IMG/VR virus record: IMGVR_UViG_3300009838_000011
Location: 1-38,632 of that record
Length of the DNA: 38,632 nucleotides
From: a virus
Strand: one strand, 5' to 3'
Shown here: piece by piece, positions 4,859 through 38,632 of the stretch
Layout: every line of letters starts with the position of its first letter
Position numbering within the stretch: position 1 is the stretch's first letter
Translations under genes and position numbers: made by a program
Notes under the pieces: generated by a model
What the model was told of the DNA's origin: nothing
The model's input: the letters and a program-made list of their open reading frames with translations, nothing else
The model's database searches: none

Positions 4859-4886
4859 GGTTTTTCCAATATTGCTATCTACATTA

Positions 4887-4892
4887 ATTATA
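4887..4892 (-). promoter_or_regulatory. -10-like TATAAT (within CTATAATTAATG) about 30 nt upstream of the terminator hairpin
   Basis: The minus strand reads TTGTTG-N17-TATAAT. It belongs to the same box family found at gene starts. Confidence 0.3.
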
Positions 4893-9091: not shown

Positions 9092-9102
9092 AATTAATTA
9101 TA
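9089..9102 (-). promoter_or_regulatory. TATAATTAATTAT box fused to ATG
   Basis: The minus strand reads GTATAATTAATTATG, with no SD. Confidence 0.4.
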
Positions 9103-11136: not shown

Positions 11137-11166
11137 AATTATATTTCGGTTATTCCGATAATAAAC

Positions 11167-11179
11167 ATAATTAATTATA
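11167..11179 (-). promoter_or_regulatory. TATAATTAATTAT box upstream of terS (followed by a 9-codon mini-ORF)
   Basis: The minus strand reads CTATAATTAATTATGTTTATTATCGGAATAACCGAAATATAA, then the terS ATG. Confidence 0.35.
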
Positions 11180-15567: not shown

Positions 15568-15655
15568 ATAAGGTTTTTCCTTTAATGAATTAATAATTAT
15601 TTACCTGCTTAGAAGAAAATAGTAATTAACCTTAAAACTAACTACCATATTCTCT

Positions 15656-15957: not shown

Positions 15958-15971
15958 TATAATTAATTATT
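15958..15971 (+). promoter_or_regulatory. TATAATTAATTATT box directly upstream of the plus-strand tRNA (candidate -10 for the tRNA)
   Basis: The plus-strand TATAAT at 15958-15963 lies 8 nt before tRNA position 1. The box is near-palindromic and so reads TATAAT-like on both strands. Confidence 0.35.
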
Positions 15972-16043
15972 GCCTCTTTAGTACAACGGCTAGTACAGTA
16001 GTTTTGTAAACTTCTAATATCTGTTCAATTCAGGTAAGAGGCT
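15972..16043 (+). tRNA. tRNA-Thr (anticodon UGU), 72 nt, no encoded CCA
   Basis: Hand-folded cloverleaf: GCCTCTT-TA-GTAC-AACGGCTA-GTAC-A-GTAGT-TTTGTAA-ACTTC-TAAT-ATCTG-TTCAATT-CAGGT-AAGAGGC-T. U8, A14, GG in the D loop, A21, U33, A37, G53-C61 and TTCAA are all present, with one T.T mismatch in the anticodon stem. The reverse orientation lacks a T loop. Confidence 0.8.
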
Positions 16044-16225
16044 CAATCCTTAATCTCCTTTATTGTCTTTAAAGCCTTAATTGCTAATTTAACCGCACCA
16101 TCATCCGAATTATGTTTTATCTTTGATCCATCATCACAAATATAAAATCCCGTCTCTAAAACCCGATTAACAACTGTTCTAGTATAAATTGGTTTTCCAT
16201 TTATTAAAATTGATACTGTTAGCAT
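16043..16225 (-). CDS. Hypothetical protein
   Basis: 60-aa ORF. Its stop codon overlaps the tRNA discriminator base by 1 nt (convergent). Confidence 0.55.
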   Translation of the reverse strand: MLTVSILINGKPIYTRTVVNRVLETGFYICDDGSKIKHNSDDGAVKLAIKALKTIKEIKD

Positions 16226-17155: not shown

Positions 17156-17533
17156 TTACTTTTTATGGTGTTTCTTTTTTTTCTTTTCTTTACTTCTCTC
17201 AATTTTTCGAATAATAATCTCTTTTGGTCCTTTAAAACAATCAGAAGGCATTTGATCGGCAGTAACTAGCTCTTTAGTGTCCGGATGTAAAAACAAACCA
17301 CTATCAATCGCTAGTCGATCATATTTCTCATGAACATCCTCTACTGGTTGCCCATAAACAGAACAAGCATTGTAACCGGCTAACATCATACAATTATGGG
17401 GATTATTACTACCACCTCGACATTGTGGCATACAGTGGTGTCCTTCTAGTACATCAACCTCTACATCTAATAGGTTACATCGATGACTACATTCTTCTTT
17501 TTTAACTCTTAATACTTCCTTAGAAAACGCCAT
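17156..17533 (-). CDS. HNH-like endonuclease
   Basis: 125-aa ORF with C-x3-C, then ...LEGHHCMPQCRGGSNNPHNCMMLAG...VH (an H-N-H-like arrangement), and a poly-Lys C-terminus. Confidence 0.5.
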   Translation of the reverse strand: MAFSKEVLRVKKEECSHRCNLLDVEVDVLEGHHCMPQCRGGSNNPHNCMMLAGYNACSVYGQPVEDVHEKYDRLAIDSGLFLHPDTKELVTADQMPSDCFKGPKEIIIRKIERSKEKKKKKHHKK

Positions 17534-17684
17534 ATATTAATTATGGTGGTTTCTAAAATTAAAAGAAATTTCTGTAAAAAAATTGAAAAAAGAATTATAA
17601 TTAAAGTAGCGCCAGTTCTATTCCCCTTATATTTTTTTGCTTATTCACTATTATCATAGTATAATAATAGATAGGTTAAACCTT

Positions 17685-18304: not shown

Positions 18305-19000
18305 TTATAAGGTGGAAATAATTGATATTTGCTTTAATTTGCTTTTTAAAGCCTCGCACTCCCTTTCCTTGTCTGCTAACTTGGTCTGGGTTTCTATTAA
18401 CTCCTTATTGTCTGGTACAACTGGTCCTTGTGGAGCTTTCCATTCAATACCTAAATAACTAACAACCCCCCTAGCTACACCTTTAGCAAGGTTATATAAG
18501 CCATCTTCTGATGATAATACCTTCCTATCCTCGTCTGTATTAATAAATCCACACTCCATAAGACAAGCTAATGGTTTTGTATCATGAATAAATCCCAATC
18601 GACCCCAAATATTAGCTGTTTTTTCATCCTTTACTCCTCTTAATTTTGACATTCCGGATTCAACTGCCATAGCATCTAAAAGAAATGAAGCAAACTTTTT
18701 ACTCTCTTCACTATTACGATAATACCAACCTTCCAAACCAACACCAGTGTTAGGCTTTGATGAAGAATTGATATGAATTTCGGAGCAAATATCAATATTA
18801 TCAGCTCGATCATTTATCCATTTAATTGTTTGAGTTAGGCTTAAATCAGATGGAGGATTCAGTACTCCGACACCATGCGCCCTTATAATTTGACTGGCAT
18901 AAGCAACAATCTTTTCAACTAAATCTCTTTCAACTAATCCGTTATAAACAGCACCCGGATCAGTGTTGGAATGTCCAGCAGATAAAGCGATTGTTTTCAT
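18305..19000 (-). CDS. N-acetylmuramoyl-L-alanine amidase endolysin (Amidase_3 family)
   Basis: 231-aa ORF with SAGHSNTDPGAV, ...CSEIHINS... and ...LMECGFINTDEDR..., the zinc-amidase signature strings. The C-terminal ~40 aa are coiled-coil-like, not a recognisable wall-binding domain. Confidence 0.85.
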   Translation of the reverse strand: MKTIALSAGHSNTDPGAVYNGLVERDLVEKIVAYASQIIRAHGVGVLNPPSDLSLTQTIKWINDRADNIDICSEIHINSSSKPNTGVGLEGWYYRNSEESKKFASFLLDAMAVESGMSKLRGVKDEKTANIWGRLGFIHDTKPLACLMECGFINTDEDRKVLSSEDGLYNLAKGVARGVVSYLGIEWKAPQGPVVPDNKELIETQTKLADKERECEALKSKLKQISIISTL

Positions 19001-19014
19001 ATAATAATTATAAA

Positions 19015-22000
19015 CTATTTTCCTAACTGTTTCTTTCTTTTGTTAGATAACCACTCATTCGGAGCGGCTACCCAAGCATCCCAATTACCATTCAAGTCAT
19101 AAAGAATCTTTGCCATCTTAATATTATTTATTGGTTCAAGCATTTTATCCCATAGAGCAGTCGCCATTTCAGGGGTAATATCAGCATAGTTTTTGTAGCT
19201 TTCATCAATAATTCCAGCATCAATCATCATTTGTCTTTCAACCTTACCACCCAATAATCCATCCGGACCAAGAAGGCGGCTATTGTTGATTCTAAATAAT
19301 CCTCGATCAGTTGAGTTTTCATTTTCTCCACTAAATTTATTTTTAAATGTTTTGACTGGCGCAGTATCACTCCATAAACCAGTTTTAGGGTCAATTTTAT
19401 TTTCAACATCAATTTCCTTACCGGCAAGTAGTTGAGTATTTTCTCCCCTGATAACACCATCACTATCGGTCCTCTTTAATATCTTTGTGGCTTCTACCCA
19501 CTTATCACCAAAGACACTCTTGATATCGTCATTGTAAGGGGTTTCAGTAGCCTTTGGACTAGTAATAGTTGGCGCTGGTTCGGTTTCTCCCTCGCCAATA
19601 TTTTCTACTTCTTTAGTTGGAGTTGGAGTAACCATTTTTTCTTTTTTCTCTTTTTCCAGTATTCCTCTAACTACTTTCTCTTCACCCAAATCAAAACCCA
19701 ATATTCTTTTTTCTACCTTATTACCAATATTTTGATAATACCAATCAGGGTTTTCTTCTCTTAAAGCTAACATGGTTTGATAATATTCTCTCTTTTGATC
19801 ACTAGTTAATTTATCTTCAATTATACCTTCAATCGGATTCTCATACTTTTGAACTCCGGGTATTAATTTAGACATATTACCTAAAAACTTTTCCCATCCG
19901 CTTCGAGTATCTTTGGACCATACCAACTGTTTGTTACTGCCTTCAATCCCCTCCGCAGCAAAAGCTGGTTTAACTAATTTAAAATCAAAGTTAAGTAGTT
20001 TTTTCTTTTCTTCATAACCACTTTTTTTATCCAATACCTTTAATTCATCCACTACTTCCTGACTAATGATTTTATATTTCAAAGCATCATTAACAAGAGC
20101 TTTAAAATCATCAGTTCTCATCGCCTTTTGGAATTGTTGAAGGTAGTCTAGTTTTTCCGCATTAAGATTAGAATAAATCAATTTATCCATATAAGGTGAT
20201 TCACCCTTTTCTCTTTGAATAGTAAATTTCTTTGCCAATGCCTTACCTTCAGTGATTAAATCTTTATCAGTCGGTAATTCACCGCCAAAATATTCTTTTA
20301 CCATTTCGGTTCTTAATTTACCAAGTTCTTGTTCATCATTAATTCCTCGACTTAATTTGACATACTTATCAACTATTTCTCTTTTTTTAATAGATTTTCT
20401 GGCTGCTTCTTGATCGGCGTTAGAAGTAAATTGCTCTTGTAATCCATAACTACTGGTTTGAAACATTCGATTAATAACCGGAATTGATTGTAAAGTTACT
20501 TCGGTAGTTGATCGGCTGCCAAAATCATAAGTTTTAAAATTACCTAAACCAACAGTATTAAGTGAGTATTGGACCATTTTACCCAATCGAATCATCCCTC
20601 CAGCTTTCCAAGAAGTCTCATCAATAGCTAGTCTCCCCCGATAACTGTCATAAGGATTTCTACCTTGTAGGTAGCCTAACCAATCACCAACAGCGGTAAA
20701 TAGTGGGGTAGGGGAGGGGATATACCCAGCACCCAAAGCTCCAATTTGCTCTGGTTTAACTATCTTGCCCTGAACCATACTACTAAAAGTTTTCCAAACA
20801 ATCGCACTAACAAATCTCTCTGTTTCATCTTGGGGAATACGCATATAAACCGCCTTTCCATTTTCATCAAATCCCACTGGTACAGTAATATAATTGGTTT
20901 TGTCATATTCAGTTTGGCTTTGGAAATTCTTTTTAACCCATTCACCAAATAGACCACTCAATCCCATTACCATTAATAATTTTGGTAATACTCCCACTAT
21001 AAAGGTTCTCATCCAATAACCGGAAGCAGTCTTTGGGTCGGTAGCCAATTCCACACTAGCCCTAGTTGCCTGAATCATCACATTGGAAAAGACAAAAATA
21101 TCATTATCCATCTGTTTATAAGTACCGCCTTCAGTATAGTTTGGCGTACCGACATAATTTCGGGTAATAAAGCCTAATTTCTTTCCATCATCAATTCTTT
21201 TCTTAGCAATTTGATAACCGGATATTTTTGAAGTGGCTTCAAAAGTACCACCGGCATATTTAATAGCTTCTAAAATCTTTCCAAAACTATTATTAAATAA
21301 TTTTCGAACTGCTCCTATTTTCTCTTCTTTACCTAATATTTTGTGTTGTCGAAGCAAAAAGGCAATTGAACTATCATTATTGGCATGAGGGTCATATTGC
21401 GACCATTGAGTAGTAATAGCTTTATTAGACAACATTTCTTTTATCAATTCTGTCTTTTTACCCGCCGCAAATTTAGCACCTTCGGGGATAGACTTAATAT
21501 AAGTGGTAAGCATTTCTCCAATAGTTACTCTTTTCTTGCCCGGAGCAAACTTATTTAAAACTGAACCTAGTGAAATATAGGTACGCTTGGTATCTCTAAT
21601 GATATTGGAATAAAAACCCCATGATAAATTGTAGGTAGTAACCAATGGTTTAAATATCTTATTAAATACCCTAGCAATCCCCACTAATTGATGGACCTCA
21701 TCAGCGGTCATATTCTCATTTTCAAACATGGATTTAATATAAGGATCGACATTATAGCCAACTCTTCGACCATCCTTCATCATTTCCAAGACTTCCATAT
21801 TATCTTCTCTCTTAAAGCGGATAACAGTACCTTTATTGGTTCTAATTGCCTTTGCTTCCTTTACATCATCAGGGAAATATTGTTGTAATTCACCTAGAGC
21901 CACTTGTTTAGCTTCCTGTATATTATTCCATTCAATTAAAGCCACTGTTTTTAAGACTGATGAAGTAAATGGGTTCTCAATTCTTTTTAAAGTACCCACC

Positions 22001-25000
22001 TGTTTTTTAATTCCGGCATCAATATAATTTTTATGGATATAATCAACCACACTAAAAGTAGCGTAAGTATCTTTATTTGGCGCTATCTTCTCTTCAAAAA
22101 CTTGTTTATTGATATTGCCATTTTTAACTGCTCTCTCATTTTCAGAAAAAATCAATTCATGAAATCTTTTTTTAACTTGTTCAAATACTTTAATCTGTTC
22201 TTCGGTTAAATTCCTTTGTTTGTAATACTGATTTAAAACCACTTCAGGTATATTGCCGATTAAACCACCCGGATTAGCCAAATTGATTCTGTCTCCTAGA
22301 GCTTCTCTTTCCAATTTTAGGACCACACCCAAATCATCTTCGCTTAAACCAATCTTTTCTAATGGGTCGGTAATTTCAGTAGTGATTCGGTCCAAAAAGA
22401 TAGCCTGATCGTTTCGCCTCATATTCATTATTTCCAAAGCCTCTCTAACTTTTTGTTTACTGGATTCAACTACCCCAATATCTACCTTTGCCAGTTTCCT
22501 ATAAATTGGGTCAAATTTAGTAACATGGTTTCTTATTAATCTATCAATAAATGGTTTTCTTGGTTTTTCGGTTTGTTCAATCTCTTCTCTCTTCTTTCTT
22601 GCTTCTTTAAACCCTTCATAGATTTCTTCAAGTCGTTTATTATTTACTTCTTCTTCGCCCTTATCAAGCATTTCTAGGGTATCAAAATAAACCTTTTCTA
22701 ATTCCGGTTTATTGTTTAAGTATTCAAAGAATCCATCATAAAACTTAGGAGCTACTTTTTGAAGTAAGCCCGGATCATTTAAAAGAACTGATACCGCATC
22801 AGCGTAAAGCTCTTTGGCACTGTATCTATATTTAGTAAAGTTTTCATTAACAGTTTCATCAAATGGTTTCCAAAGCTGGGTAAGATTTTTTAGTTCATTT
22901 TTAATCTCTCTATTATTCAAATCAGCATACTTGCCTTCCATAAATTTACTTAAAGAAGCAATATGGCCAATTAAATTACCTCTAGTTGTAAAACCATCAG
23001 GAATAAAGTCGGCAATATGACCAATCTCATGAGCCAAAACTTTACCAGCTACCACTGGATCATCAAAGATTCTGGGATTAAGTTTAATCATGCCTTTACC
23101 CTTCTCATACATTCGACCCAAAGCAGTTTTAAAAGCCTTTAGAGTTGGCACATCTCCAGTTAATTCCCGAACTAGTCTCACCATTTCCGGGAATTGGATA
23201 GCCCTAATATGGTTTAAAACCACTCCAGCGGATTCTAAATCAGCATAACCACCAATATCAGCATTACCGCTTGGCGCTTTATATTTACTAACATCATTAT
23301 CTTTAATCTGTTTTAACTCAATTTCCCTTAATAATTGCTCTTTTTTAGTAGCTATCTGCTCTTCACTTAATTCATTTAAGTCTTTGGTTTTATCAACAAA
23401 CTCGCTGACATGATCAGCGATAGACTTTCTATTGGCAATCATCTCATCATATTGGCGTTGAAACTTAGCTAATCTGTCTTTATAAGTTTCAGTAATTTTG
23501 CCAATATCAATATTTACCTGTTCTTTTAGAGTTTCAATTCTTTTAATCTCCGCATCAATATCGGTAATTCCCGCTTTGTCTAATTTCTCTTGAATAGAGA
23601 CTTCTTCTTTTTTGGCTTTATTAACTTCCTTTCGGTAGTTACTAATGCCTTCAGGGTCAATCGGACTACCCCATTGAGTTTTACCGGTAACAATCCTTTC
23701 AGAATTAAATTGGATTTTTTCTTTTAAGGCTTCTCTCCTTTCCTTGATTCTGTTTAAATTGCCAATATCAGTAGAAAACATAACCAGTTGATTTTGTAAT
23801 CCCGCCTTATCCATTTCAATTTCAATGGCTGCCTTATCTTCAGGGTTAGTCATTAGCGCTAGTTTCTTTTCTCTTGGGTCTAATTCACCCACATCAAATA
23901 TCTGTCCTTGATAAGAAAATAGGTCATTGATTCTGCCGCCTTTTTCTTCAAACTTATTATAAACAGTAATATCACCGGAGTTTTCCACTAGAGGATAAAT
24001 AAGAGGCGCTATGGACCGCTTGTTTCCTTGTCGCCATACCCTTCCTTCTACTTGGGCAGGTTCGGTTGGATTCCATCCTAAAGCATTATTAATGGTTACA
24101 TATCCATTATTCTGTAAATCAATTCCTTCCTTAGTTGGATCACCGCCAATTAATAGTTTAACTTTGCCATCATTAAAGTCTTGCTTAATAGCTTCCCGCT
24201 CATCATTACTGGTTGAGCCATTAATCACTGCTACTTCACTGCCTTTAAAACCTAAATGTTTCACCGCATATTCAGCCAAATGGTTATGGTATTCTACTCC
24301 ATTTGCTCCCATATAAAGGAATGTTCCATATTTTTTAGTAGATTCATTACCTTTAAGCCACTTAACTAATTCCATTGAGTATTTAAGTTTAGGAGAATTA
24401 TCAATCAACTCTTCTGGACTGACAATTTGCGGCTGGTATTCTTTAATAAAATAAGGGGAGATTGAATTAGCTACCGAATAAGTTGAAGCCTTTAAGACCG
24501 CTCCATCCTCCGGTTTGCGATTATCCGATGGTTTTAACATCTCTTGAATTTTAGTTAAGTTCTCTTCCTGTAAGGCACTCATTTGAAGAGTTGGGGTCAT
24601 TACCCTTCGCTCTGGTCTTACTAATGTTGGATCAACTTGGTAATCAACAAACTCTCTTAATATCTTTTGGAGTTGAGGTAGGTTTTTAAATGACTTCATC
24701 TTTTCTTTATTCACCCATTCACCTCTGACATTCTTTTCCATTTCGGTTTCAAAGTTGGAGAATAAAGCAAAGAAATCATTAATATTAAATATTCCAATTT
24801 TCTTTAATCTATCCCTAGCTACCAATGATAGGATGTTATAAACCTCTGTGGCGTGGTTTTCAAAGGGAGTAGCCGAAGCAAGATATACTCCTCGATTATT
24901 ATTCTTCTTTAAAATATATTGGGAAATAATAAATAGTTGTTGAGCCTGTTTTGATGGCGTACCACCAATAACATTACCAAACCTTTTAGTTTTTGATTTA

Positions 25001-28000
25001 TCAACACTACCATCAGGATTAACCGCTTCCGGTTTAGCGCCTTGAAATATCTTTCTAAAATTATGAACCTCATCAACTGAAATATGGTCAATACCTAAAT
25101 CGGTAATTTTAATATCTCCAGCTTTATATTGAGCTTTACCAACAATCTCTTGAATCTTTGACTTTTGAAGTTCCCCTTTTCTAGCTGTTTCATTTTCTGT
25201 TCCCAAAGCATCAGTTAAATCACCAATGGCGCTATTTAATTCATCCGGAGTTAAAGATAATCTTAATAAACCTTCATGAGTAAGGACCGCTATCTCTCCA
25301 TCTTTAATCCACTTGGTTTTATCTTTACCTCTCTCCTTTTCTATTTTGGTTACTTCTGGTTTAGTTAAACCGCCGAGATTGACAATAGTTTCATTAGGAA
25401 ACATTGATTTAATGGTAGTTATCCAAGTTTGAGAAAGAGTAGATTTAGGTACAATGAAAGCGGGTCTTTTGGTCCAGCCTTTTTGTTTGGCCACCATTGT
25501 AGCGGTTAAGAGGGTATGGGTTTTACCCACTCCCACTCCATAAGCCACCAAACCAACACCCTTATTGGTTAAAAAAGAAACTCCATTAGATTGAGTTGGC
25601 GATAGTTTAAAGGTCTTACCCCTAAAGAATTTCGCCATATCTTTAATTTCTGTTGGAATTTTAGAATAATCCGGATTGACATAACTATTCTTTTCTTTAT
25701 TAAATTTATCGACTATCTGATTTTGAATATCTGAATCCAAAACATTTCGAATAAAGTAATTAAACAACCTTGCCGAATCTGCTTTAATTGCTCCCATAAT
25801 GTTTTTAGTACCCGGAGAAGCCCGATAACCTAAAACATAATTGCGAATATCATAGCGATTAACTCCATAAGATAAGGCCGAATCAGTCTTATTTAAGAAA
25901 CTAATAAATTGATCAATAATTCTAGTTCCAGCTTCCTCATCTAGTTTAATTTCAGTAACATATCTATCTAGTGGGTCAAAGGTAATATCCTTTAATTCCA
26001 CTGGCTTAGGTTTAATAGCTTCCAAACCATTTAATTGTTTGTCATATTGAGCTTGTCCTAATTTAGAAATAATGGTTTCTTTATCCGCTTTAAGTTCTTC
26101 TATTTTTTGATAAACATCACCGCTAAAATAATTGACATCATGGTAATACTTTCCTTGAAAGTAGTTTAAAATCTTTTTAGCTTCGGGAATAAAATCAACA
26201 CTGCCATCAACCTTAGTATCTTTTAAGATTTTGGATTCAACCGGATCAATATTAGAAATTCCACCACTGACTGTTTGGACCGGTACTGTCTCCACCTTTA
26301 ACTTATCCGGTTTAATAACTGGAGGTAATTTACCGGTCTTGCTTTGTTTGGTTATATTTCTTTTAGTCTTTATAGAATAAGAAGGTTCTTTAATTGGCTT
26401 TGGTTTAGCGGTTTTAGTTGGCTTACTCACTTCAACTGTTTCTGTTTCTTCTACTATTGGAGATAATCTTAAAACATCATTTAAATCTCCTTTAACAAAA
26501 GTTTCCTGTTGGCCGAATCGATTTTGTCTTTGTTCTACTGTTCCAGCTACATTATCCGGATTCTTTTCAAAGTAGTTACCACTAGTCATATCAACCACTC
26601 TCTTTTGAATTTCTAGTCTATCAAGTGAGCCACCTTTTTCAGAAAGTTTGGGAGTTTTTTGAAACACCACTATATCTGTACCAATACTGGTATCAGTAAA
26701 GATTCCTTCGGGTAATCGGTAGGCTTGGATTAATTTACCGGTTTTAGCTATCTCTTCTTTAGCAAAACTGTTTTCCTTATTTAAGAAAGAAGAATTGACA
26801 ACATAAACCAATTTTCCGCCTTCCTTTAATGATTCAAGCCCTCGCTTAATAAAAAACTCTTCCCATCGATTAATCTTTGGTTCTACCCCTTTACCTTTAA
26901 GAAAAGAGGCTCTTTCACCAAAGGGAGGATTACCCACCACTAAATCATAATTGGCTTTAGGTTCATGAGTTTCAAAATTACCATCATTACCAAATTCTTC
27001 TCCATTACCAATCTTAATATTAACTTCCGGATATAATAATTTAGCGATTGTTCCTGATACCTTTTGATATTCATAAGCATCCCATTTAATAAAAGATGGG
27101 TCATAAATCAAATTACCAGTACCGGCACTTGGCTCTAAAATAGATTTAGCGTTTGGTTCTAACATCCTTGCTATCTGCCATACCTTATCAACTACTTCCG
27201 GTGGAGTATAGTATTCCGATAATAAACCTTTACCACTTGCTCCAGTTTCAGCCTTACCACCAGCACCACTAAATAAAGCTAATTTATCTAATTCTTCTTG
27301 GGTATAATCTTTTCGATCAGTGGAAAATTCATGACCCATTAATATTAATTCGGCTTCATTATTGGCTTCGGCTCTAGTTACTTTTCCGCCAATTGTTCTT
27401 GTTCGCTTAGGTCCATTTCCAGATTCACTAATGCTTGTTGTCTCGTCATGGAGCGATCTTTCATCAACTTCTGGATTGCGTTCTCTATCTGTTGGCTGTC
27501 GTACTTCACCAGTGTCGGGAACTCTTGTGGGTTGAATGGTTGTGGTTTCATCTACTGGTATTATACCTTTTTCTGCCAATCTCATCAAATCCGAGACTAT
27601 ATTTCTTTGCCATTCAACTTCATTACTGATTTTATCCATTTCCTCTTTTACCCAATTAGGGAATAAACCCATCTTAACACCAGCTTTTTCACTCTCATTT
27701 AATCTACCCCAAATACCATCCGCAGTAACCGATGTTGGATTCTCATTGGTAATTGGTTCAATTGTTTCCGGTTTAGTGGCTTCATAACCGCCTTCCTTTT
27801 TGGGTATTAAATCAAATTTTTTAACAGTTACTTTTGTTTTTTTAGTTTCTTTAGGTTTGTACTTATTAATAAACTCCTCTTCCATTCGGGCTTGTCTTGA
27901 TATAATTTCATCTCTTTTACCTTCTAAACCTGCCCGATTTTCTTTATTGGCTTCTTTAATCTGTTTATTTAATTCTTGGACCTGATTTTCCATCTCTCCA

Positions 28001-30135
28001 TAATCCTCAGCATAATTATCAATCCAATCTTCTTCGGCTTTAGCTTGAACATCAGCGGGTAACTCTTCAATGTTTGGCTGTTCTGCTGTTTCAGAAACGC
28101 TAGGACCACTAATTTTATTAACATCAGATATTTGTTTTGATCCACCATAAGTACCCGGAGTAATATATTGAACTGAATAACCACCTTCATAAGCTGGTGC
28201 GTTCTTCTCATCTGTTATTCCGACAACATAAGCCTTACTATTACCAAACTTTTCATCAACTATCTCAACAATGTCTCCAATCTTTATTCCTTTAGGATTC
28301 TCGGCTTCATTAATTTCATCTTCCTCTATATTCTCAATTCTTTCCTTCATCTGTTCGGTCCATTGATCGATATTAATAATACTGTCCTTTGATGGTTTAG
28401 TGTTTTCTAAAATATATTTATAGATTTCACTAACTTTTTTATTATTATCAGCATTTTCACTTAATTTTATTGGTGGCAACTCCTGATCTTTTTTTATAAC
28501 CTCTTCTGATACCACCTCTTCTTTTTTCATTGTTTCTAGGACCTTTGGTGTTGTCTCTTCTTTTTTTTCCGTAACCTTTGGCTCTTTCTTTTCTTCTTCT
28601 TGAACATTACCACCTTGATTTTCCATTTTTGGAGGTTGAACATCCATCGGTTTTACCACTTCACCATCTTCTTTGGTTTTTTCAGTTATAACTTCTTTAA
28701 TAATTGTCTCGACTTGTTTTTTATTTTCCTTAATTTTTTCTTCAATGACTTCAATTTTAGCGGTTTCAATATCCGTACCCTCATTAACTTTTTTCATTAC
28801 CTCTTCTTTTACTCCGGGTACTTCTTCCACCACTCTATCTTTTATCTCTTCAACTGTTTGTTTAGCTCTCTCGATTCCGTTTTGAGTTACTTGGGCAGTC
28901 ACATCCTTACCGGTACTCGAATCAATGATTGCGCCACCAGCAGTAAAGACTAATCCCTGAATACCTCCCAATGTAAATTCCATTGCTGTTTCGTTAGAGG
29001 TTAAATCAAATGGTTTGTCTTTGGACCATAAAGAAATATTCTTTTGTGCTACTTCCTCTCCACCCTCTGAAACAAACTCACCAGTTGCTGTTCCGACTGT
29101 TTTAATTACCTTAGCAGTTCGAGATACTGTTTTACTGACATCAGAAACAGTATCAGCGGTTTTACCTAACTGACCTAATATGGGAATATATTGAAGAGTA
29201 TTTGATAAACCTAATAAAAGTAAATTTCCTTTAAATGTTTTATTGGCTGCCTTATTTGCTTCCTCTTTGGTTTTTCCTTCCTGTAACATTTCATCATAAG
29301 TCGAACCAGCCTCACTTGCTGATTCAAATGGAGTAGCCAAAGCTGAACCACCAATAGCTGCTAAAATTGTTGTACCCAACACTCCTAAACCCATAGCACC
29401 GGCAACTGCTGCTCCAGCATAGCCACCAGCAATCGCCAAAGGTAACATAGCCAAAGTAAAGACCGAACCTCTAGCCACAAGAGTAGTATAAAGTCGAGGA
29501 TTCATTAAATCTTTCCAATCAAACTCACCAATATCTTTGCTGGTATCAGGCATGAATTGTCTTAACTCTCCACCCTTTTGAACTAACTTATCTCCTAAAC
29601 CATCAGCTCCTTTCCATCTTAAAATATTACCAGCACCAGTAATTACATCACCAGCACCAGCTACCATTGAAGGTACAACCTCCATAATTTGTGGAGGAGT
29701 AATATTTCCCCATTTCTTTTTTATATCCAATGGGCTTGATGAAGTTTCCGCTCCAGTGGAAGTAGCCGATGATACTGCGGTTTTACTAGCAACATCATAA
29801 ATCTTTAAACCATATTCAGTTGGCGGGGTAATTTGAATTTTAGAAGTATCAATTGTCGGAGTTTGGACCGCCGGTTGTTGATTCAACTGTTGCTCTATTT
29901 TTTTTTTACCACTTAGGTTACTGAAAAGATCAGCCGCCTTTGTCTTTATTGTTTCAAACCATGATGGTTTTTTGGTTTCTACTGGAGTAGTAGTTGTTTT
30001 AGTTTCAGTCGGATAATACTTATCAATCAAACTTCCGCCGGTCTTTTGTTGTTGTCCAGCTATTTGTGAAGGGGTCTGTTGTAATTTTTTTTTCTTCTCC
30101 TCTTCTGTGGGGTAGAATTGGTCAATTAACGACAT
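19015..30135 (-). CDS. Giant polyvalent virion/ejection protein (3,706 aa): TM/Gly-zipper region, N6-adenine MTase, DExH/SNF2-like helicase, HExxH zincin, C-terminal lysozyme/LT-like domain
   Basis: A single uninterrupted ORF of 11,121 nt sitting between the tail genes and the lysis cassette. Domain motifs are listed as separate features below. Confidence 0.85.
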   Translation of the reverse strand: MSLIDQFYPTEEEKKKKLQQTPSQIAGQQQKTGGSLIDKYYPTETKTTTTPVETKKPSWFETIKTKAADLFSNLSGKKKIEQQLNQQPAVQTPTIDTSKIQITPPTEYGLKIYDVASKTAVSSATSTGAETSSSPLDIKKKWGNITPPQIMEVVPSMVAGAGDVITGAGNILRWKGADGLGDKLVQKGGELRQFMPDTSKDIGEFDWKDLMNPRLYTTLVARGSVFTLAMLPLAIAGGYAGAAVAGAMGLGVLGTTILAAIGGSALATPFESASEAGSTYDEMLQEGKTKEEANKAANKTFKGNLLLLGLSNTLQYIPILGQLGKTADTVSDVSKTVSRTAKVIKTVGTATGEFVSEGGEEVAQKNISLWSKDKPFDLTSNETAMEFTLGGIQGLVFTAGGAIIDSSTGKDVTAQVTQNGIERAKQTVEEIKDRVVEEVPGVKEEVMKKVNEGTDIETAKIEVIEEKIKENKKQVETIIKEVITEKTKEDGEVVKPMDVQPPKMENQGGNVQEEEKKEPKVTEKKEETTPKVLETMKKEEVVSEEVIKKDQELPPIKLSENADNNKKVSEIYKYILENTKPSKDSIINIDQWTEQMKERIENIEEDEINEAENPKGIKIGDIVEIVDEKFGNSKAYVVGITDEKNAPAYEGGYSVQYITPGTYGGSKQISDVNKISGPSVSETAEQPNIEELPADVQAKAEEDWIDNYAEDYGEMENQVQELNKQIKEANKENRAGLEGKRDEIISRQARMEEEFINKYKPKETKKTKVTVKKFDLIPKKEGGYEATKPETIEPITNENPTSVTADGIWGRLNESEKAGVKMGLFPNWVKEEMDKISNEVEWQRNIVSDLMRLAEKGIIPVDETTTIQPTRVPDTGEVRQPTDRERNPEVDERSLHDETTSISESGNGPKRTRTIGGKVTRAEANNEAELILMGHEFSTDRKDYTQEELDKLALFSGAGGKAETGASGKGLLSEYYTPPEVVDKVWQIARMLEPNAKSILEPSAGTGNLIYDPSFIKWDAYEYQKVSGTIAKLLYPEVNIKIGNGEEFGNDGNFETHEPKANYDLVVGNPPFGERASFLKGKGVEPKINRWEEFFIKRGLESLKEGGKLVYVVNSSFLNKENSFAKEEIAKTGKLIQAYRLPEGIFTDTSIGTDIVVFQKTPKLSEKGGSLDRLEIQKRVVDMTSGNYFEKNPDNVAGTVEQRQNRFGQQETFVKGDLNDVLRLSPIVEETETVEVSKPTKTAKPKPIKEPSYSIKTKRNITKQSKTGKLPPVIKPDKLKVETVPVQTVSGGISNIDPVESKILKDTKVDGSVDFIPEAKKILNYFQGKYYHDVNYFSGDVYQKIEELKADKETIISKLGQAQYDKQLNGLEAIKPKPVELKDITFDPLDRYVTEIKLDEEAGTRIIDQFISFLNKTDSALSYGVNRYDIRNYVLGYRASPGTKNIMGAIKADSARLFNYFIRNVLDSDIQNQIVDKFNKEKNSYVNPDYSKIPTEIKDMAKFFRGKTFKLSPTQSNGVSFLTNKGVGLVAYGVGVGKTHTLLTATMVAKQKGWTKRPAFIVPKSTLSQTWITTIKSMFPNETIVNLGGLTKPEVTKIEKERGKDKTKWIKDGEIAVLTHEGLLRLSLTPDELNSAIGDLTDALGTENETARKGELQKSKIQEIVGKAQYKAGDIKITDLGIDHISVDEVHNFRKIFQGAKPEAVNPDGSVDKSKTKRFGNVIGGTPSKQAQQLFIISQYILKKNNNRGVYLASATPFENHATEVYNILSLVARDRLKKIGIFNINDFFALFSNFETEMEKNVRGEWVNKEKMKSFKNLPQLQKILREFVDYQVDPTLVRPERRVMTPTLQMSALQEENLTKIQEMLKPSDNRKPEDGAVLKASTYSVANSISPYFIKEYQPQIVSPEELIDNSPKLKYSMELVKWLKGNESTKKYGTFLYMGANGVEYHNHLAEYAVKHLGFKGSEVAVINGSTSNDEREAIKQDFNDGKVKLLIGGDPTKEGIDLQNNGYVTINNALGWNPTEPAQVEGRVWRQGNKRSIAPLIYPLVENSGDITVYNKFEEKGGRINDLFSYQGQIFDVGELDPREKKLALMTNPEDKAAIEIEMDKAGLQNQLVMFSTDIGNLNRIKERREALKEKIQFNSERIVTGKTQWGSPIDPEGISNYRKEVNKAKKEEVSIQEKLDKAGITDIDAEIKRIETLKEQVNIDIGKITETYKDRLAKFQRQYDEMIANRKSIADHVSEFVDKTKDLNELSEEQIATKKEQLLREIELKQIKDNDVSKYKAPSGNADIGGYADLESAGVVLNHIRAIQFPEMVRLVRELTGDVPTLKAFKTALGRMYEKGKGMIKLNPRIFDDPVVAGKVLAHEIGHIADFIPDGFTTRGNLIGHIASLSKFMEGKYADLNNREIKNELKNLTQLWKPFDETVNENFTKYRYSAKELYADAVSVLLNDPGLLQKVAPKFYDGFFEYLNNKPELEKVYFDTLEMLDKGEEEVNNKRLEEIYEGFKEARKKREEIEQTEKPRKPFIDRLIRNHVTKFDPIYRKLAKVDIGVVESSKQKVREALEIMNMRRNDQAIFLDRITTEITDPLEKIGLSEDDLGVVLKLEREALGDRINLANPGGLIGNIPEVVLNQYYKQRNLTEEQIKVFEQVKKRFHELIFSENERAVKNGNINKQVFEEKIAPNKDTYATFSVVDYIHKNYIDAGIKKQVGTLKRIENPFTSSVLKTVALIEWNNIQEAKQVALGELQQYFPDDVKEAKAIRTNKGTVIRFKREDNMEVLEMMKDGRRVGYNVDPYIKSMFENENMTADEVHQLVGIARVFNKIFKPLVTTYNLSWGFYSNIIRDTKRTYISLGSVLNKFAPGKKRVTIGEMLTTYIKSIPEGAKFAAGKKTELIKEMLSNKAITTQWSQYDPHANNDSSIAFLLRQHKILGKEEKIGAVRKLFNNSFGKILEAIKYAGGTFEATSKISGYQIAKKRIDDGKKLGFITRNYVGTPNYTEGGTYKQMDNDIFVFSNVMIQATRASVELATDPKTASGYWMRTFIVGVLPKLLMVMGLSGLFGEWVKKNFQSQTEYDKTNYITVPVGFDENGKAVYMRIPQDETERFVSAIVWKTFSSMVQGKIVKPEQIGALGAGYIPSPTPLFTAVGDWLGYLQGRNPYDSYRGRLAIDETSWKAGGMIRLGKMVQYSLNTVGLGNFKTYDFGSRSTTEVTLQSIPVINRMFQTSSYGLQEQFTSNADQEAARKSIKKREIVDKYVKLSRGINDEQELGKLRTEMVKEYFGGELPTDKDLITEGKALAKKFTIQREKGESPYMDKLIYSNLNAEKLDYLQQFQKAMRTDDFKALVNDALKYKIISQEVVDELKVLDKKSGYEEKKKLLNFDFKLVKPAFAAEGIEGSNKQLVWSKDTRSGWEKFLGNMSKLIPGVQKYENPIEGIIEDKLTSDQKREYYQTMLALREENPDWYYQNIGNKVEKRILGFDLGEEKVVRGILEKEKKEKMVTPTPTKEVENIGEGETEPAPTITSPKATETPYNDDIKSVFGDKWVEATKILKRTDSDGVIRGENTQLLAGKEIDVENKIDPKTGLWSDTAPVKTFKNKFSGENENSTDRGLFRINNSRLLGPDGLLGGKVERQMMIDAGIIDESYKNYADITPEMATALWDKMLEPINNIKMAKILYDLNGNWDAWVAAPNEWLSNKRKKQLGK
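19018..19518 (-). other. Giant ORF domain: lysozyme / specialised lytic-transglycosylase-like C-terminus
   Basis: ...GENENSTDRGLFRINNSRLLGPDG... (D at aa 3610, nt 19306-19308). This resembles the S-x-D-x-GL(M/F)QIN motif of VirB1-type transglycosylases and C-type lysozymes. Confidence 0.55.
22696..23178 (-). other. Giant ORF domain: zincin-like metallopeptidase
   Basis: VLAHEIGHIADF; HEIGH at aa 2369-2373, nt 23017-23031. Confidence 0.6.
23896..25638 (-). other. Giant ORF domain: SF2 DExH / SNF2-like helicase
   Basis: Walker A GVGVGKTHT (K1538, nt 25522-25524); motif II DEVH (aa 1688-1691, nt 25063-25074); motif VI-like QVEGRVWRQGN (aa 2028-2038, nt 24022-24054). Confidence 0.8.
26596..27288 (-). 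other. Giant ORF domain: N6-adenine DNA methyltransferase (motif order I then IV)
   Basis: YYTPPEVV, then ILEPSAGTGNL (AdoMet motif I, aa ~1000-1009), then VVGNPPFGE (NPPF at aa 1069-1072, nt 26920-26931). Confidence 0.8.
29161..29493 (-). other. Giant ORF region: Gly/Ala-rich transmembrane (glycine-zipper) segments
   Basis: aa ~215-325: ...VFTLAMLPLAIAGGYAGAAVAGAMGLGVLGTTILAAIGGSALA...LLLLGLSNTLQYIPILGQLG. This resembles the membrane-inserting segments of tape-measure and ejection proteins. Confidence 0.55.
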
Positions 30136-30137
30136 AT

Positions 30138-31496
30138 TTAATATCCTGTTGTACCTTGTAACTTCTGTCTAGCCTCTTCGGGGGATAATTCTCCTCTAGC
30201 GACTTTATAAAGTAATTGTACCTCAAAAGGATTTTCTGTTGGCGCTCCCCACTTTTTACCCATCGCACCATTCATATAAGCCTGTTTGATTTCATCAATA
30301 CTGGAAACTCCAGCATATTTATTAATTAAATCAGGATAATTCATAGTGTCCGCATCAGCCTTTAAATTAGCTGCTGTTAATTTAGATGGAGTAGTTGAAC
30401 TACCACTTGGTTTTAACCCAGTTGAGACAACTTTCATCTTTCCATCACTACCAACCACCCATGCTTCACTATTATCACTACTAAATGCCAAAATTTTATC
30501 TTTAGCCGATACTCCCATACTGGCGATTGTGCCTACTGGTAAGCCTGATTGAATTTCTAGTTTTTGAATTTGAAGTTTTTGATCAGCTGACATGGTATCA
30601 AAAGTCATATTACCCGAAGTAATAGCATTTGCCATTGTAGTTAGGTTGGCTCTAGCATTATCGATATTGGCTTGTTTAATTGTTTGAGCGAACTTGGCAG
30701 TATCTAAAGTCATATCAAAACCGGTCTTTATTAAAGTGACTGATTGATTAAATGCTTTGTCTGCCATATCAGTTACCATTGATTGAATCTTATAGTTTCG
30801 GTCAAAATCAGCATTATAAGCAGTTACCGCATCTTGATAATCAAGCCCTAAGTCGGTCACATAGGTATTAATTACATTATATTTAGTATTTAATTCATTA
30901 ATAACACTATTCTTTTGTCTAATCACCGCATCAAGCCTTGTTTGAGCCACTCTCTGCTCTTCTGTAATTCTTCCCGAGATAACATTCATGGCTACTGGTT
31001 TGCCTTCTTCTGTGCCAGTTAAAGCCCTTAATTCATCAGTTATTTTTGTCTCTTCATCTTTAATCGAATTTAATTCAGTTTCAAGTTCAGTAACACCTAA
31101 ACTAGCCATCATCTCTTGTCTTGCTGCTACTCGACTAATTGGAGTAGGCGCTGGAGTATCTGGAGTTAAATTATTCTTTAATTCTTCAAAGGTTGGAGTT
31201 TCGGCTGGTTTTAAAGCCGATAAAGATTCCATTGCTGTCTTTTGGAAATCATCTAAATATCCGGGCAATTGATCACTTGAAGTTGGTGTAGCCGAAAAAT
31301 CAGTTGTTTGAGTTGGAGATGGAGTTGAAGATTGTTGAGTACCGGACCACCACCTATCAACATATCCACTGGCCGGATTATAATACCAACCGCCATTACT
31401 GCGTTTAGATTCCGGAACTATTTCAGGATTAGCCCAAGTAGCTTTTGTTGCTGGATCACCTTTGTTATCCCAATAACCGGTTGATGTTTCTGCCAT
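30138..31496 (-). CDS. Hypothetical virion protein (possible internal/ejection protein)
   Basis: 452-aa ORF ending 2 nt before the giant ORF start. It has a W/Y-rich N-terminus (GWYYNPASGYVDRWWSG), an S/T/P/Q linker and a coiled-coil-like centre. Confidence 0.5.
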   Translation of the reverse strand: MAETSTGYWDNKGDPATKATWANPEIVPESKRSNGGWYYNPASGYVDRWWSGTQQSSTPSPTQTTDFSATPTSSDQLPGYLDDFQKTAMESLSALKPAETPTFEELKNNLTPDTPAPTPISRVAARQEMMASLGVTELETELNSIKDEETKITDELRALTGTEEGKPVAMNVISGRITEEQRVAQTRLDAVIRQKNSVINELNTKYNVINTYVTDLGLDYQDAVTAYNADFDRNYKIQSMVTDMADKAFNQSVTLIKTGFDMTLDTAKFAQTIKQANIDNARANLTTMANAITSGNMTFDTMSADQKLQIQKLEIQSGLPVGTIASMGVSAKDKILAFSSDNSEAWVVGSDGKMKVVSTGLKPSGSSTTPSKLTAANLKADADTMNYPDLINKYAGVSSIDEIKQAYMNGAMGKKWGAPTENPFEVQLLYKVARGELSPEEARQKLQGTTGY

Positions 31497-31509
31497 ATAA
31501 TTAATTATA
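31494..31509 (-). promoter_or_regulatory. Perfect 14-nt palindrome TATAATTAATTATA whose last A is the A of the ATG
   Basis: The minus strand reads GTATAATTAATTATATG at the start of ORF 30138-31496. Confidence 0.4.
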
Positions 31510-36307: not shown

Positions 36308-37369
36308 TTATTTATTCCAAGTAGTATTATTTTTGGAGTTAGAACCCCAACTACTAACTGTTTTAGCAATATTAGAAAAGATTGAACCTCTCCTTATTAC
36401 TATATTAATTTTACTATTATCTTGAAACAAAAGATAGCTTCCATCCTGTAATTTTAGCTTTGAAGGTCTAAATTTTTCGGTTTTATTCCAATCACTATCA
36501 TTTTTACTTTGTTTACTGAAACTAGAAATAATTTTTACTATTTTATTCCAACCTTCAACAAAAAATCCATTTAAATATTTTTTAATAGTATCTACAATAC
36601 CAACAATATTAGAAAATGATTTTAACCACATCTTGGTAATTCCATTATCAATAGCTGATAAAACATCACTTAGAGTACGAGCATAAAAAACATTCTGAAC
36701 AACTGTAGATAAAGAAATTATTGAATCAGTTAGTGTTCGGTAATATTGACCAGCAATAGCAAAGAAATCAGTAATATGAAAAGTATCTAATAAATTCTTA
36801 ATTCCTTTATTAAAATAGGTTGATATTACTGTATATGAATCATTAAAACTCCTAGTAAAACTCTTTATAAAAGTAACCACTAATATAAGTTCTTCTGTAA
36901 AAACTCTATTAAAGACTAAAAGAATATTAATTACTTCTGATAAATTTATTGCTTCTAAAAATGTTTTAACTTGTTGCTTAATAAAAATATCAACTACTGT
37001 ATAAATATCACTCAATCCCCTTGCTATGGACCGAATTAAAGTACTAGTTATAGTAATTGTACTTGTTAAAGTTTTAACTAAAGCCCGAACAATTAAACTC
37101 TCATTTAGAATAATTGAACTTGATAATACTTTAATACCCTTATTAATTAATGTTGAAGTTACCGAATATAAATCACTTAATCCTCTTGTTATTGCTTTTA
37201 TTACTGTACTATTGGTAATAATATTACTTGATAAAGTTTTACCAATAGAACGAATAATACTTGAAGTTAAGACTAATGTTTCAGATAGAGTTTTTGTATA
37301 GTCCGTACCGGCAGATACCCTGCCCATACCACCATAAGATGTACCTCCATAAGTTGTTGATCCATACAT
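36308..37369 (-). CDS. Repeat protein: about 13 tandem 18-20-aa units, fibre or needle candidate
   Basis: 353 aa with a Gly/Tyr-rich N-terminus (MYGSTTYGGTSYGGMG). Then come units of the form [KR]-x-L-[ST]-[DES]-x-[ILV]-x-[ILV]-x-[ST]-x-[ILV]-[IL]-[KR]-x-[ILV]-x, for example KTLSETLVLTSSIIRSIG, KTLSSNIITNSTVIKAIT and RGLSDLYSVTSTLINKGI. Confidence 0.55.
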   Translation of the reverse strand: MYGSTTYGGTSYGGMGRVSAGTDYTKTLSETLVLTSSIIRSIGKTLSSNIITNSTVIKAITRGLSDLYSVTSTLINKGIKVLSSSIILNESLIVRALVKTLTSTITITSTLIRSIARGLSDIYTVVDIFIKQQVKTFLEAINLSEVINILLVFNRVFTEELILVVTFIKSFTRSFNDSYTVISTYFNKGIKNLLDTFHITDFFAIAGQYYRTLTDSIISLSTVVQNVFYARTLSDVLSAIDNGITKMWLKSFSNIVGIVDTIKKYLNGFFVEGWNKIVKIISSFSKQSKNDSDWNKTEKFRPSKLKLQDGSYLLFQDNSKINIVIRRGSIFSNIAKTVSSWGSNSKNNTTWNK

Positions 37370-37432
37370 ATATTAATTATACCTTTACTTGACTTTACTT
37401 TCTTTTTTTACCAATACATTTTTTATTTATAG

Positions 37433-38536
37433 TTAAGCGGCTTCATAAGTACCAGACATAACGCAGTAATGACCAGCTGCCCAAGTTAAAGGAACAGTGG
37501 AACTACAACCAGAAATAGTAGTATAAGTACCACTTGCATTGTAAGCAAAAATTATTCCATTACCAGTAATTGATAGGTGATAAGATGTTGCACCATCAAA
37601 AACCGAACCATGACCAAGACCATCGGTATAAGCACCATAACCAGAACTAGCACTCACTGGCAAAGTTAAACTTATAGCACCGACTGATATTCCTGTTCCG
37701 CCTAATACAAATTTAATTCTCCAATGAACAGTTTTACCTATTTGGCAATAAGCACCCACTAAAGTTCCAGTTGAACCCACATTTAAGTTGGCAATCGTTG
37801 GATTAAAAGATGTCCAAGCACCTGTTTGCCCATCTAAAGCATTTAATTCAGCAGCAGTTGAGGTAACAGCAGTACCAGCACCGGCACCAAGTTTTAAGCC
37901 ACCATCAGCAATAGATAATGTATCAACATTTTTGTCCGCACCTAGAACTAATGCTTTACTAGCAACAGCAGTACCAGCGACAGAACCATCAATTAAATTT
38001 ACCTCTGTAGCAGTAGCACTTATGGCTACATCTTCATTTAATTTTGGAGAAGTAAATCTTTTATTAGTTTGAGTTTCAGTTCTGGAGGCCAAGTCAATCC
38101 ATTTTAATCCTGTAGTTTCACCACTATCAGCCACTAAACCATATCCATTAGTTCCAACACCAAGTCTGGCATAAACAGTTGAAAAGGTTAATAAATCTCC
38201 CTTAGTAGTTAAGACATCAATTTGATCCCATACTCCATCAGTAGGAGATAAATAAAATTCATCACCAACTACTACAGTTCTAGCATTAGAAGATTCTTGT
38301 GTACGAGTAATAGTGAAATTATCATTGGCCGGATCATGAGAAGTAACAAGGACCACTTCGGCATTATCTGGATTAGCTGGAACACCAGCGGCTTTAATAA
38401 CACAAACATAAGTACCACCTGAAGTATTGGGAAATCTAGCACCTTCACCACTAGCACAAACTAAAGTAGTACCGGATGCAGCAGGACTTGGAGCAGTAGC
38501 GACTGTTGTATAAGCAAAATTCTTTCTCTGATACAT
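37433..38536 (-). CDS. Tail fibre protein
   Basis: 367 aa. The N-terminal domain (...EVVLVTSHDPANDNFTITRTQESSNARTVVVGDEFYL...) follows a pattern common at phage fibre N-termini. The central QTNKRFTSPKLNEDVAISATATEVNLIDG motif is shared with ORF 35370-36305. Its first 27 nt lie in the terminal repeat. Confidence 0.6.
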   Translation of the reverse strand: MYQRKNFAYTTVATAPSPAASGTTLVCASGEGARFPNTSGGTYVCVIKAAGVPANPDNAEVVLVTSHDPANDNFTITRTQESSNARTVVVGDEFYLSPTDGVWDQIDVLTTKGDLLTFSTVYARLGVGTNGYGLVADSGETTGLKWIDLASRTETQTNKRFTSPKLNEDVAISATATEVNLIDGSVAGTAVASKALVLGADKNVDTLSIADGGLKLGAGAGTAVTSTAAELNALDGQTGAWTSFNPTIANLNVGSTGTLVGAYCQIGKTVHWRIKFVLGGTGISVGAISLTLPVSASSGYGAYTDGLGHGSVFDGATSYHLSITGNGIIFAYNASGTYTTISGCSSTVPLTWAAGHYCVMSGTYEAA

Positions 38537-38632
38537 AGTTTAATTATAAACTAAATCATCAGTATTAGGCAGTTGTTACCTGAATATTATGTGTAATTTG
38601 AAGTGAATCACCAGAAACAACATTGACTGCTG
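38510..38632. repeat. Terminal direct repeat, copy 2 (identical to 1-123)
   Basis: Read directly; see copy 1. Confidence 0.95.

Follow-up and report, generated by a model that had tools for sequence, protein, structure and literature searches.

What is the function of an AT-only palindrome of 13–14 nucleotides (nt) that is welded to the start codons of a phage genome? The question arises at positions 31494–31509 of the IMG/VR virus record IMGVR_UViG_3300009838_000011, whose entire 38,632 nt (the window) were analyzed, and at further minus-strand starts of the same DNA. An earlier interpretation, the sequence-only reading, regarded the boxes as candidate internal promoters for leaderless mRNAs or as operators acting on both strands, with a convergence of AT-rich spacers as the trivial alternative. 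The results described here favor the first of these: the boxes are probably sigma-70-type promoters without a −35 element, whose mRNAs would be leaderless or nearly so.

The window is a complete phage genome in a circular assembly with a unique length of 38,509 bp. Positions 1–123 are identical to positions 38510–38632 (123 nt), which marks the assembly as circular or terminally redundant; because the ends overlap, features within these segments are counted twice. The sequence matches the ENA contig ERZ27257456 k141_968792. The genome has a GC content of approximately 34%, its intergenic DNA one of 30%. All protein genes lie on the minus strand, and tRNA-Thr(TGT) at 15972–16044 is the sole plus-strand gene. 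Recognizable products are TerL, an SU10-type portal and adaptor, the capsid protein, tail-fiber-like proteins, and an Amidase_3 endolysin. Among GenBank phages, no close relative was found in a megablast with 12 kb. The relatives used for comparison are about a dozen metagenomic phage contigs obtained by protein-anchored searches, with TerL or adaptor identities to the window of 45–77%.

Position and spacing of the hexamer

The core of the box is the hexamer TATAAT, which stands 5–7 nt upstream of ATG (spacing N5–7) at seven of 50 gene starts and at 4/901 other ATGs in the window (Fisher 2e-7); start 17533, with CATAAT at N6, is the eighth boxed start. In the relatives, TATAAT, TATACT, or CATAAT lies 5–6 nt from 14 of 219 non-redundant starts versus 15 of 4263 other ATGs across 5–7 nt (Fisher 1e-11). 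When the window and its relatives are pooled, TATAAT is the commonest hexamer 5–7 nt from a start (17 starts versus 1.25 expected from other offsets) and outnumbers any Shine–Dalgarno (SD) hexamer. Of its 22 occurrences in spacers, 16 are located exactly 5 or 6 nt from a start, whereas other AT-only words are scattered over 11–21 nt. The first T of the hexamer lies at −11 to −13 relative to the start codon. The copies in the window, with open reading frame abbreviated as ORF and amino acid as aa, are:

883–896, minus strand: TATAATTAATT-ATG, N5 (start 885); TATAAT 896–891, TAATT, ATG 885–883; 62-aa gene; SD absent
1630–1643, minus strand: TATAATTAATT-ATG, N5 (start 1632); TATAAT 1643–1638, TAATT, ATG 1632–1630; SU10-like adaptor gene
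9089–9102, minus strand: TATAATTAATT-ATG, N5 (start 9091); TATAAT 9102–9097, TAATT, ATG 9091–9089; 93-aa gene downstream of terL; weak −35-like TTGATT 18 nt upstream
31494–31509, minus strand: TATAATTAATTAT-ATG, N7 (start 31496); TATAAT 31509–31504, TAATTAT, ATG 31496–31494; 452-aa gene
37367–37381, minus strand: TATAATTAATAT-ATG, N6 (start 37369); TATAAT 37381–37376, TAATAT, ATG; 353-aa tail-region gene
38534–38548, minus strand: TATAATTAAACT-ATG, N6 (start 38536); TATAAT 38548–38543, TAAACT, ATG; tail-fiber-like gene; repeated at 25–39 (assembly overlap)
18998–19012, minus strand: TATAATTATTAT-ATG, N6 (start 19000); TATAAT 19012–19007, TATTAT, ATG; Amidase_3 endolysin gene
17531–17545, minus strand: CATAATTAATAT-ATG, N6 (start 17533); variant CATAAT 17545–17540, TAATAT, ATG; 125-aa gene
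11139–11179, minus strand: TATAAT 11179–11174, TAATT, ATG 11168 of a 9-codon mini-ORF; box copy 11167–11179
9366–9375, minus strand: TATAATTAAT within the 3′ end of terL, 41 nt upstream of ATG 9328
4883–4892, minus strand: TATAAT 4892–4887 and TAAT, upstream of the capsid gene
15958–15971, plus strand: TATAAT 15958–15963, then TAATTATT, directly ahead of tRNA-Thr(TGT) 15972–16044

The sites named by the sequence-only reading are all present, and the enrichment of an AT-only box at minus-strand starts is borne out; the entries at 38548 and 39 are one site because of the assembly overlap. The variant assigned to start 15955 exists, but its hexamer abuts the ATG (N0) and is therefore assigned to the plus-strand tRNA, not to the minus-strand ORF. 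The copies near terS, the capsid gene, and the tRNA are likewise found, with the qualification that the terS-position gene is without a family match and owes its label only to its location upstream of TerL. The boxed genes are tail, adaptor, lysis, and a few other genes, most of them structural or lytic.

Measured against shuffled controls, the motif is enriched and its spacing to ATG is sharp (N5–7). The exact 13-mer TATAATTAATTAT has 7 matches at 6 loci versus 0.03 ± 0.22 expected from dinucleotide shuffles, and TATAATTAAT has 10 matches versus 0.90 ± 1.02. That AT-rich, stop-rich spacers merely converged on similar words without function is most improbable. The richness of the intergenic DNA in TAATTA, ATTATT, and AATTAA speaks for such a convergence and accounts for the 3′ half of the 13-mer, but not for the hexamer or its spacing: significance survives when shuffling is confined to AT-rich intergenic DNA (TATAAT, 11 versus 4.55, P = 0.005; TATAATTAA, 7 versus 0.30), the positional peak is sharp, and the hexamer is conserved amid diverged flanks.

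In an alignment of 26 sites from the window and its relatives, A2 and T6 of the hexamer are invariant (26/26), and the only variants, TATACT and CATAAT, differ at positions 5 and 1. An invariant A2/T6 pair with variation at positions 1 and 5 is the pattern expected for recognition by sigma-70. Conservation extends past the hexamer, with TATAAT-TAA in 22 of the 26 sites, and the consensus of the box is TATAATTA(A). Upstream of the hexamer, the ATG-welded boxes of this alignment are without information content, with no TTGACA-like −35 element 17 ± 1 nt upstream and no TGn extension of the −10 element. A generic promoter scan yields consensus matches that are not above the shuffled level, with a weak −35 at only two boxes. 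A scan of all IMG/VR contigs with the 14-mer gives almost only single unrelated matches in AT-rich contigs (two contigs have two) and is uninformative.

Orthologous starts and the palindrome

At orthologous starts of the adaptor, 62-aa, 93-aa, and 452-aa genes, the hexamer and its distance from ATG are kept, whereas flanks and intervening bases have diverged. For the adaptor gene, six relatives carry TATAAT or TATACT at N5–6 before the conserved protein start MTP...; the sequences include:

Window and L153: TATAAT-TAATT-ATG
L152: TATAAT-TAATCT-ATG
L009: TATAAT-TAGTTT-ATG
L156: TATAAT-AAATTT-ATG
L157: TATACT-TAAAAT-ATG

The orthologous start of the 62-aa gene is boxed in L152, L153, and L009, and the box of the 93-aa gene is kept in L021 (N5) and L009 (TATAAT-GAAATT-ATG, N6). 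The 452-aa gene has an orthologue in L162 (48% identity) with TATAAT-TATAT-ATG, and the box of the tail-fiber-like gene is identical in L152. The 484-aa gene features a box in its L162, L156, and L157 orthologues and has lost the hexamer in the window. The endolysin orthologue of L160 has neither box nor SD. Since hexamer and distance stay constant while the intervening bases drift, it is the hexamer with its spacing that is conserved and not the palindrome.

This distinction bears on the proposal that a dimeric DNA-binding regulator uses the 13- to 14-nt palindrome as its operator, which would overlap the start codons and switch genes off or on. Six exact copies of the 13-mer have dyad symmetry, and at 31496–31509, alone among all copies, the symmetry is perfect over 14 nt; this is also the only site with TATAAT on both strands. 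However, the symmetry is lost at orthologous sites, for example, in TATAATAAATTTATG, TATACTTAAAATATG, and TATAATGAAATTATG (L009, L156, L157, and L166 lack it), with hexamer and spacing retained. The right arm is built from the AT of ATG and the spacer word TAATTA, which is enriched 13.5-fold in all spacers of the phage family (TAATTA, ATTATT, and AATTAA, 8- to 13-fold). No candidate regulator, helix-turn-helix or sigma-like, is found among the proteins scanned, and the orientation of the boxes follows the downstream gene. An operator acting on both strands is hence very unlikely, and this part of the sequence-only reading is not upheld. The 13-nt palindrome is a composite of the hexamer, the family-wide AT-only spacer word TAATTA, and the AT of ATG. 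A hairpin-promoter interpretation was rejected as well: only a 5-bp all-AT stem is possible, and the symmetry is not conserved.

Relation to Shine–Dalgarno sites and start codons

The observation that boxed genes are without SD holds when extended to the relatives: a strong SD is present at none of 22 boxed starts versus 55 of 233 unboxed ones (window and relatives; P = 0.006). The start codon is ATG in all 22, and a T occupies position −1 in 21 of them, compared with 106 of 201 unboxed ATG starts (P = 5e-5). With T at −1 and A at +1, these 21 sites fit the pyrimidine–purine rule for transcription start sites, an indirect indication. Boxed starts always lie at least 8 nt from the upstream ORF.

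Box and SD replace each other at orthologous starts. The adaptor start of L158 has an AGGAG SD in place of the box, and in the tail-fiber orthologue of L162 and L153, which shows 71% identity beginning at residue 1, AAGGGGG stands ahead of a GTG start instead. A third swap, between the 353-aa gene and a 272-aa gene of L162, was dropped since the proteins are not homologous. We infer that the box is an evolutionary alternative to the SD in this phage family.

The box could also be a signal on the RNA, an explanation that is possible though rather unlikely. An AU-rich, unstructured, stop-rich AUG context would recruit ribosomes on a polycistronic mRNA—which could proceed via protein S1, a standby site, or termination–reinitiation—and the likeness to TATAAT would be incidental. 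The boxes lie 8–31 nt behind co-directional genes without terminators in between, many unboxed genes are likewise SD-less with AT-only leaders such as ATTATTAA...AAAAAT-ATG, and TAATTA-type words are 8- to 13-fold enriched in all spacers. In addition, the box supplies TAA stops in two reading frames, and a sharp distance to AUG is equally expected of a translational signal. This explanation does not account for the prevalence of TATAAT, with its invariant A2 and T6, over other AT-only hexamers at 5–7 nt or for the pyrimidine at −1.

A third start context has neither SD nor box: AT-only words (ATTATTAA, TAATTA) lie 11–21 nt upstream and AAAAAT abuts the ATG (13 starts), giving leaders like ATTATTAA...AAAAAT-ATG. 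Starts of this class in the window are 5481, 4785, 3759, 2260, 15363, and 13465, together with orthologues in relatives. Behind genes such as the capsid gene (3817), TAATTAATTAA gives stop codons in all three frames. At 31494–31509, the TAA within the hexamer is the stop codon of the preceding 126-aa gene.

The hexamer in canonical promoters and ahead of the tRNA

The hexamer occurs, in addition, within promoters of canonical sigma-70 type. The capsid promoter on the minus strand consists of a −35 element TTGTTG (4915–4910), a 17-nt spacer, and the −10 element TATAAT (4892–4887). Across an alignment of eight relatives, CTTG of the −35 element is invariant and TTGACA is present in L156, L157, and L158; in the seven relatives closest to the window, TATAAT or TATATT follows 17 nt downstream, in L158, the spacer is shorter and the hexamer degenerate. 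Like the welded boxes, the −10 element of the window is extended by TAAT, although it lies 101 nt from any ATG. A second promoter is found in L166 at the orthologue of the 484-aa gene (52% identity; 10405–10431): TTGACA, 15 nt, TGgTATAAT, 9 nt, ATG. With only 9 nt between TATAAT and ATG, there is no room for an SD.

The only properly oriented copy on the plus strand immediately precedes the only plus-strand gene, its hexamer ending 8 nt before tRNA-Thr. A tRNA, being untranslated, has no need of a translation signal. A signal acting on the RNA leaves all three of these cases unexplained: the 10-mer in a promoter with a −35 element and 101 nt from any ATG, the full promoter beside the ATG of L166, and the copy ahead of the tRNA. 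The tRNA-Thr(TGT) itself is antisense to all other genes in the window, an arrangement also seen in L009.

The capsid leader (4915–4785, minus strand) is kept in eight relatives and features, in this order, the promoter, a hairpin with an AAAAA loop, a terminator-like hairpin, an A-rich leader, and ATG 4785. The small hairpin is TTGG-AAAAA-CCAA with CGG/CCG and CAG/CTG variants, and the terminator-like element at 4858–4825 is a GC-rich hairpin followed by a T-run. Compensatory changes occur in 8 of 16 predicted pairs. With a boxB-like hairpin between promoter and terminator, the layout is reminiscent of leaders that work by antitermination or attenuation. Hairpins with A-rich loops are also located upstream of other SD-less starts on the minus strand, namely TCGG-AATAA-CCGA (11144–11160, terS-position gene) and AAGG-AAAAA-CCTT (15570–15582, 62-aa gene at 15567), and TCGG/CCGG-AAAAA-CCGA/CCGG hairpins occur in L152 (about 1615–1635) and L156 (about 1525–1545). 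GGAAWAACC has 4 matches versus 1.0 expected.

Proposed promoters for leaderless mRNAs

The interpretation of the boxes as internal promoters for leaderless mRNAs is supported, though still unproven, by the identity of the hexamer, its sharp spacing, its conservation amid drifting flanks, the ATG-only starts with a pyrimidine at −1, the box/SD swaps, and the occurrence of the hexamer in two promoters with a −35 element. In the proposed mechanism, the host RNA polymerase holoenzyme would melt the hexamer, and the first transcribed nucleotide would be the A of ATG or lie no more than about 2 nt away from it. The resulting mRNA would be leaderless or nearly so and could be translated by 70S ribosomes without an SD. 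The boxes would act as internal promoters nested in a one-directional gene array and restart the expression of tail, adaptor, and lysis genes along with a few more. Both steps, transcription start at the box and translation of a leaderless mRNA, are deduced from the sequence.

Several points weigh against these promoters. The welded boxes have neither a −35 element nor a proper TGn and would be weak promoters by Escherichia coli rules. Sigma-70-type promoters initiate 6–9 nt past the hexamer; at N5, the A of ATG is 6 nt past it, the short edge of start-site choice in E. coli. This spacing is found at three sites in the window and six in relatives. The boxes lie 8–31 nt behind co-directional upstream genes, and since there are no terminators between, read-through mRNAs would carry these ATGs internally and would need another route of translation. 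Many unboxed genes, the capsid gene included, are SD-less as well; when a leader is AU-rich, the host can evidently initiate without an SD. AT-only words are enriched in spacers generally. Finally, the antisense tRNA-Thr of L009 (95–166) has no box 8 nt upstream, and the juxtaposition of box and tRNA is a single case.

Nested transcripts starting at boxes inside the co-directional arrays are possible. A combined function is conceivable too, if unlikely: the element would be a −35-less promoter on the DNA, and on read-through RNA, UAUAAUUAAUU-AUG would be an SD-independent signal for initiation or reinitiation. In that case, a single 13-mer would determine where transcription begins as well as where translation starts internally, and it would be exchangeable for an SD over evolution. 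The phage as a whole would then follow one expression grammar, in a host lineage of low GC content that is not known to use leaderless mRNAs.

The promoters might instead be read by a phage-encoded or modified factor rather than by the unmodified host sigma-70 holoenzyme, as at the late promoters of T4, with temporal control of the boxed genes; this is doubtful. The absence of a −35 element, the extension TATAAT-TAA in 22 of 26 sites, and the predominance of structural and lysis genes among the boxed ones suit such a factor, and the late promoters of phage Lalka27a have a distinct −10 element, ascribed by the authors of that study to a factor from the phage (bioRxiv 10.64898/2026.04.20.719267). 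However, scans with PHROGs and Pfam, which took in the early-region and other small proteins, detect no RNA polymerase, no sigma factor, no gp55/gp33-like protein, and no helix-turn-helix regulator among the window proteins scanned; the 125-aa and 172-aa proteins have no matches in the library against which each was scanned. The presumed early region, too, opens with a boxed gene (17533), and the hexamer is a host-type −10 element that is paired with a −35 element at the capsid promoter.

Comparison with known systems

T4 late promoters have the consensus TATAAATA and are read with gp55/gp33/gp45, and their transcripts have SD-containing leaders. Like the boxes, they are short AT-only elements of −10 type without a −35 element before late structural genes. 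In contrast to them, the boxes differ from the T4 consensus by one base and are without SD. The sequence TATAAATA is not matched, and no gp55, gp33, or sigma homologue is found among the proteins scanned (PHROGs, Pfam).

Leaderless mRNAs from −10 boxes near ATG are known in Deinococcus, actinobacteria, and Thermus phages. Bacterial genes of the leaderless type have an accepted signature, TANNNT, the first T of which precedes the start codon by approximately 12 nt (Zheng et al. 2011, PMC3160421). For Deinococcus, experiments showed that a −10 motif 6–7 bp from the ORF is a promoter, even without a −35 element, and genes of this kind coexist with a GGAG class (Zhong et al. 2025, PMC12340547). 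The phage boxes resemble these TA-led genes in the position of the hexamer (first T 11–13 nt upstream, with a sharp peak at gaps of 5–6 nt), the lack of an SD at AUG starts (22/22), the coexisting SD-led class, and the dispensable −35 element. They differ in belonging to an uncultured phage of 34% GC instead of high-GC Deinococcus-Thermus or actinobacterial chromosomes, in having the full TATAAT consensus and spacings that include N5, in start sites predicted from sequence, and in their location, which is within dense arrays of co-directional genes and not at the evident head of an operon.

Among Thermus phages, most middle and late mRNAs of YS40 are leaderless (PMC3594737), and Lalka27a has mostly leaderless transcripts (2026 preprint, bioRxiv 10.64898/2026.04.20.719267). 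Their promoters, like the boxes, have no recognizable −35 element; unlike the boxes, they were mapped experimentally and in a thermophilic high-GC host, whereas the signal here is predicted and marks approximately 8 of 50 genes. YS40 also shifts the levels of host IF2 and IF3 (PMC3594737). Leaderless transcripts are, by contrast, absent from phage phiKZ (PMC8244752). Among phages, the classical example of a leaderless mRNA is that of lambda cI from PRM, as cited in PMC12340547. There too, a sigma-70 promoter is placed such that the transcript begins at AUG, as predicted for the boxes; PRM, however, serves a single regulatory gene, has a −35 element, and depends on an activator, and it is not a motif repeated across structural genes.

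Other features of the genome

The box copy ahead of the terS-position gene opens a mini-ORF whose TAA ends 2 nt before ATG 11136 and which spans the small hairpin TCGG-AATAA-CCGA; the mini-ORF is not conserved in L009. The copy within terL (9366–9375) is a candidate promoter with a leader, or may represent just the codons for D-I-I-N; GATATAATTA at the terL 3′ end is kept in L021 and L009, where coding constraint may be the cause.

The boxed 125-aa gene is the first after a 219-nt non-coding gap behind the lysis genes. This gap (17752–17534, minus strand) contains a nested hairpin, ACCGCC...GTAGTC-TTTTTAT-GACTAC...GGCGGT, and is probably the end of a late transcription unit just ahead of the boxed gene.

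Beside the tRNA lies a 475-nt non-coding region in which ATGATGATAATAT occurs twice as a tandem direct repeat (approximately 15812–15786, minus strand) that might represent an iteron or belong to an origin. A 35-aa ORF at 15955–15848 (minus strand; MKCKIDGCLNEAVEGIGWCWKH...), unannotated in the deposited contig, has a Cys/His pattern that is weakly zinc-finger-like (Pfam Zf_WRKY19, E = 0.014). A tRNA-like 3′ fragment at approximately 11640–11571 (minus strand) abuts the ATG of a DUF1064/resolvase-like gene and comprises a T-arm (GGCGG-TTCGAGT-CCGCC), an acceptor strand, and a terminal CCA; it is called by neither ARAGORN nor Rfam, and no match to it was found. An Rfam search over the non-coding gaps has the tRNA as its sole match, and no integrase is seen in the genome.

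A single ORF of 3706 aa (19015–30135, minus strand) occupies 29% of the genome. Its protein features an Eco57I-like methylase and SNF2/ResIII/Helicase_C domains and looks like a giant polyvalent, possibly injected, protein of anti-restriction type. An N4-like virion RNA polymerase, also considered for it, was dropped in view of the Eco57I-like methylase and SNF2 helicase domains found instead.

Implications

A signal of leaderless type is in itself already known; new would be that an uncultured low-GC phage lineage carries it. If confirmed, the leaderless strategy reaches beyond the high-GC Deinococcus-Thermus, the actinobacteria, and the Thermus phages to an uncultured low-GC podophage lineage. 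The replacement of a −10 box by an SD, or the reverse, at the same orthologous start codon would be a clean natural example of turnover in the mechanism of initiation. TerL matches in three metagenome-assembled genomes (Armatimonadetes, Bathyarchaeota, and Alphaproteobacteria) were not trusted as a guide to the host, their labels being inconsistent and their GC contents differing. The motif itself hints at a host with sigma-70-type promoters and a tolerance of SD-less initiation, which could aid host prediction. In related metagenomic genomes, it may serve to fix true start codons and transcription units.

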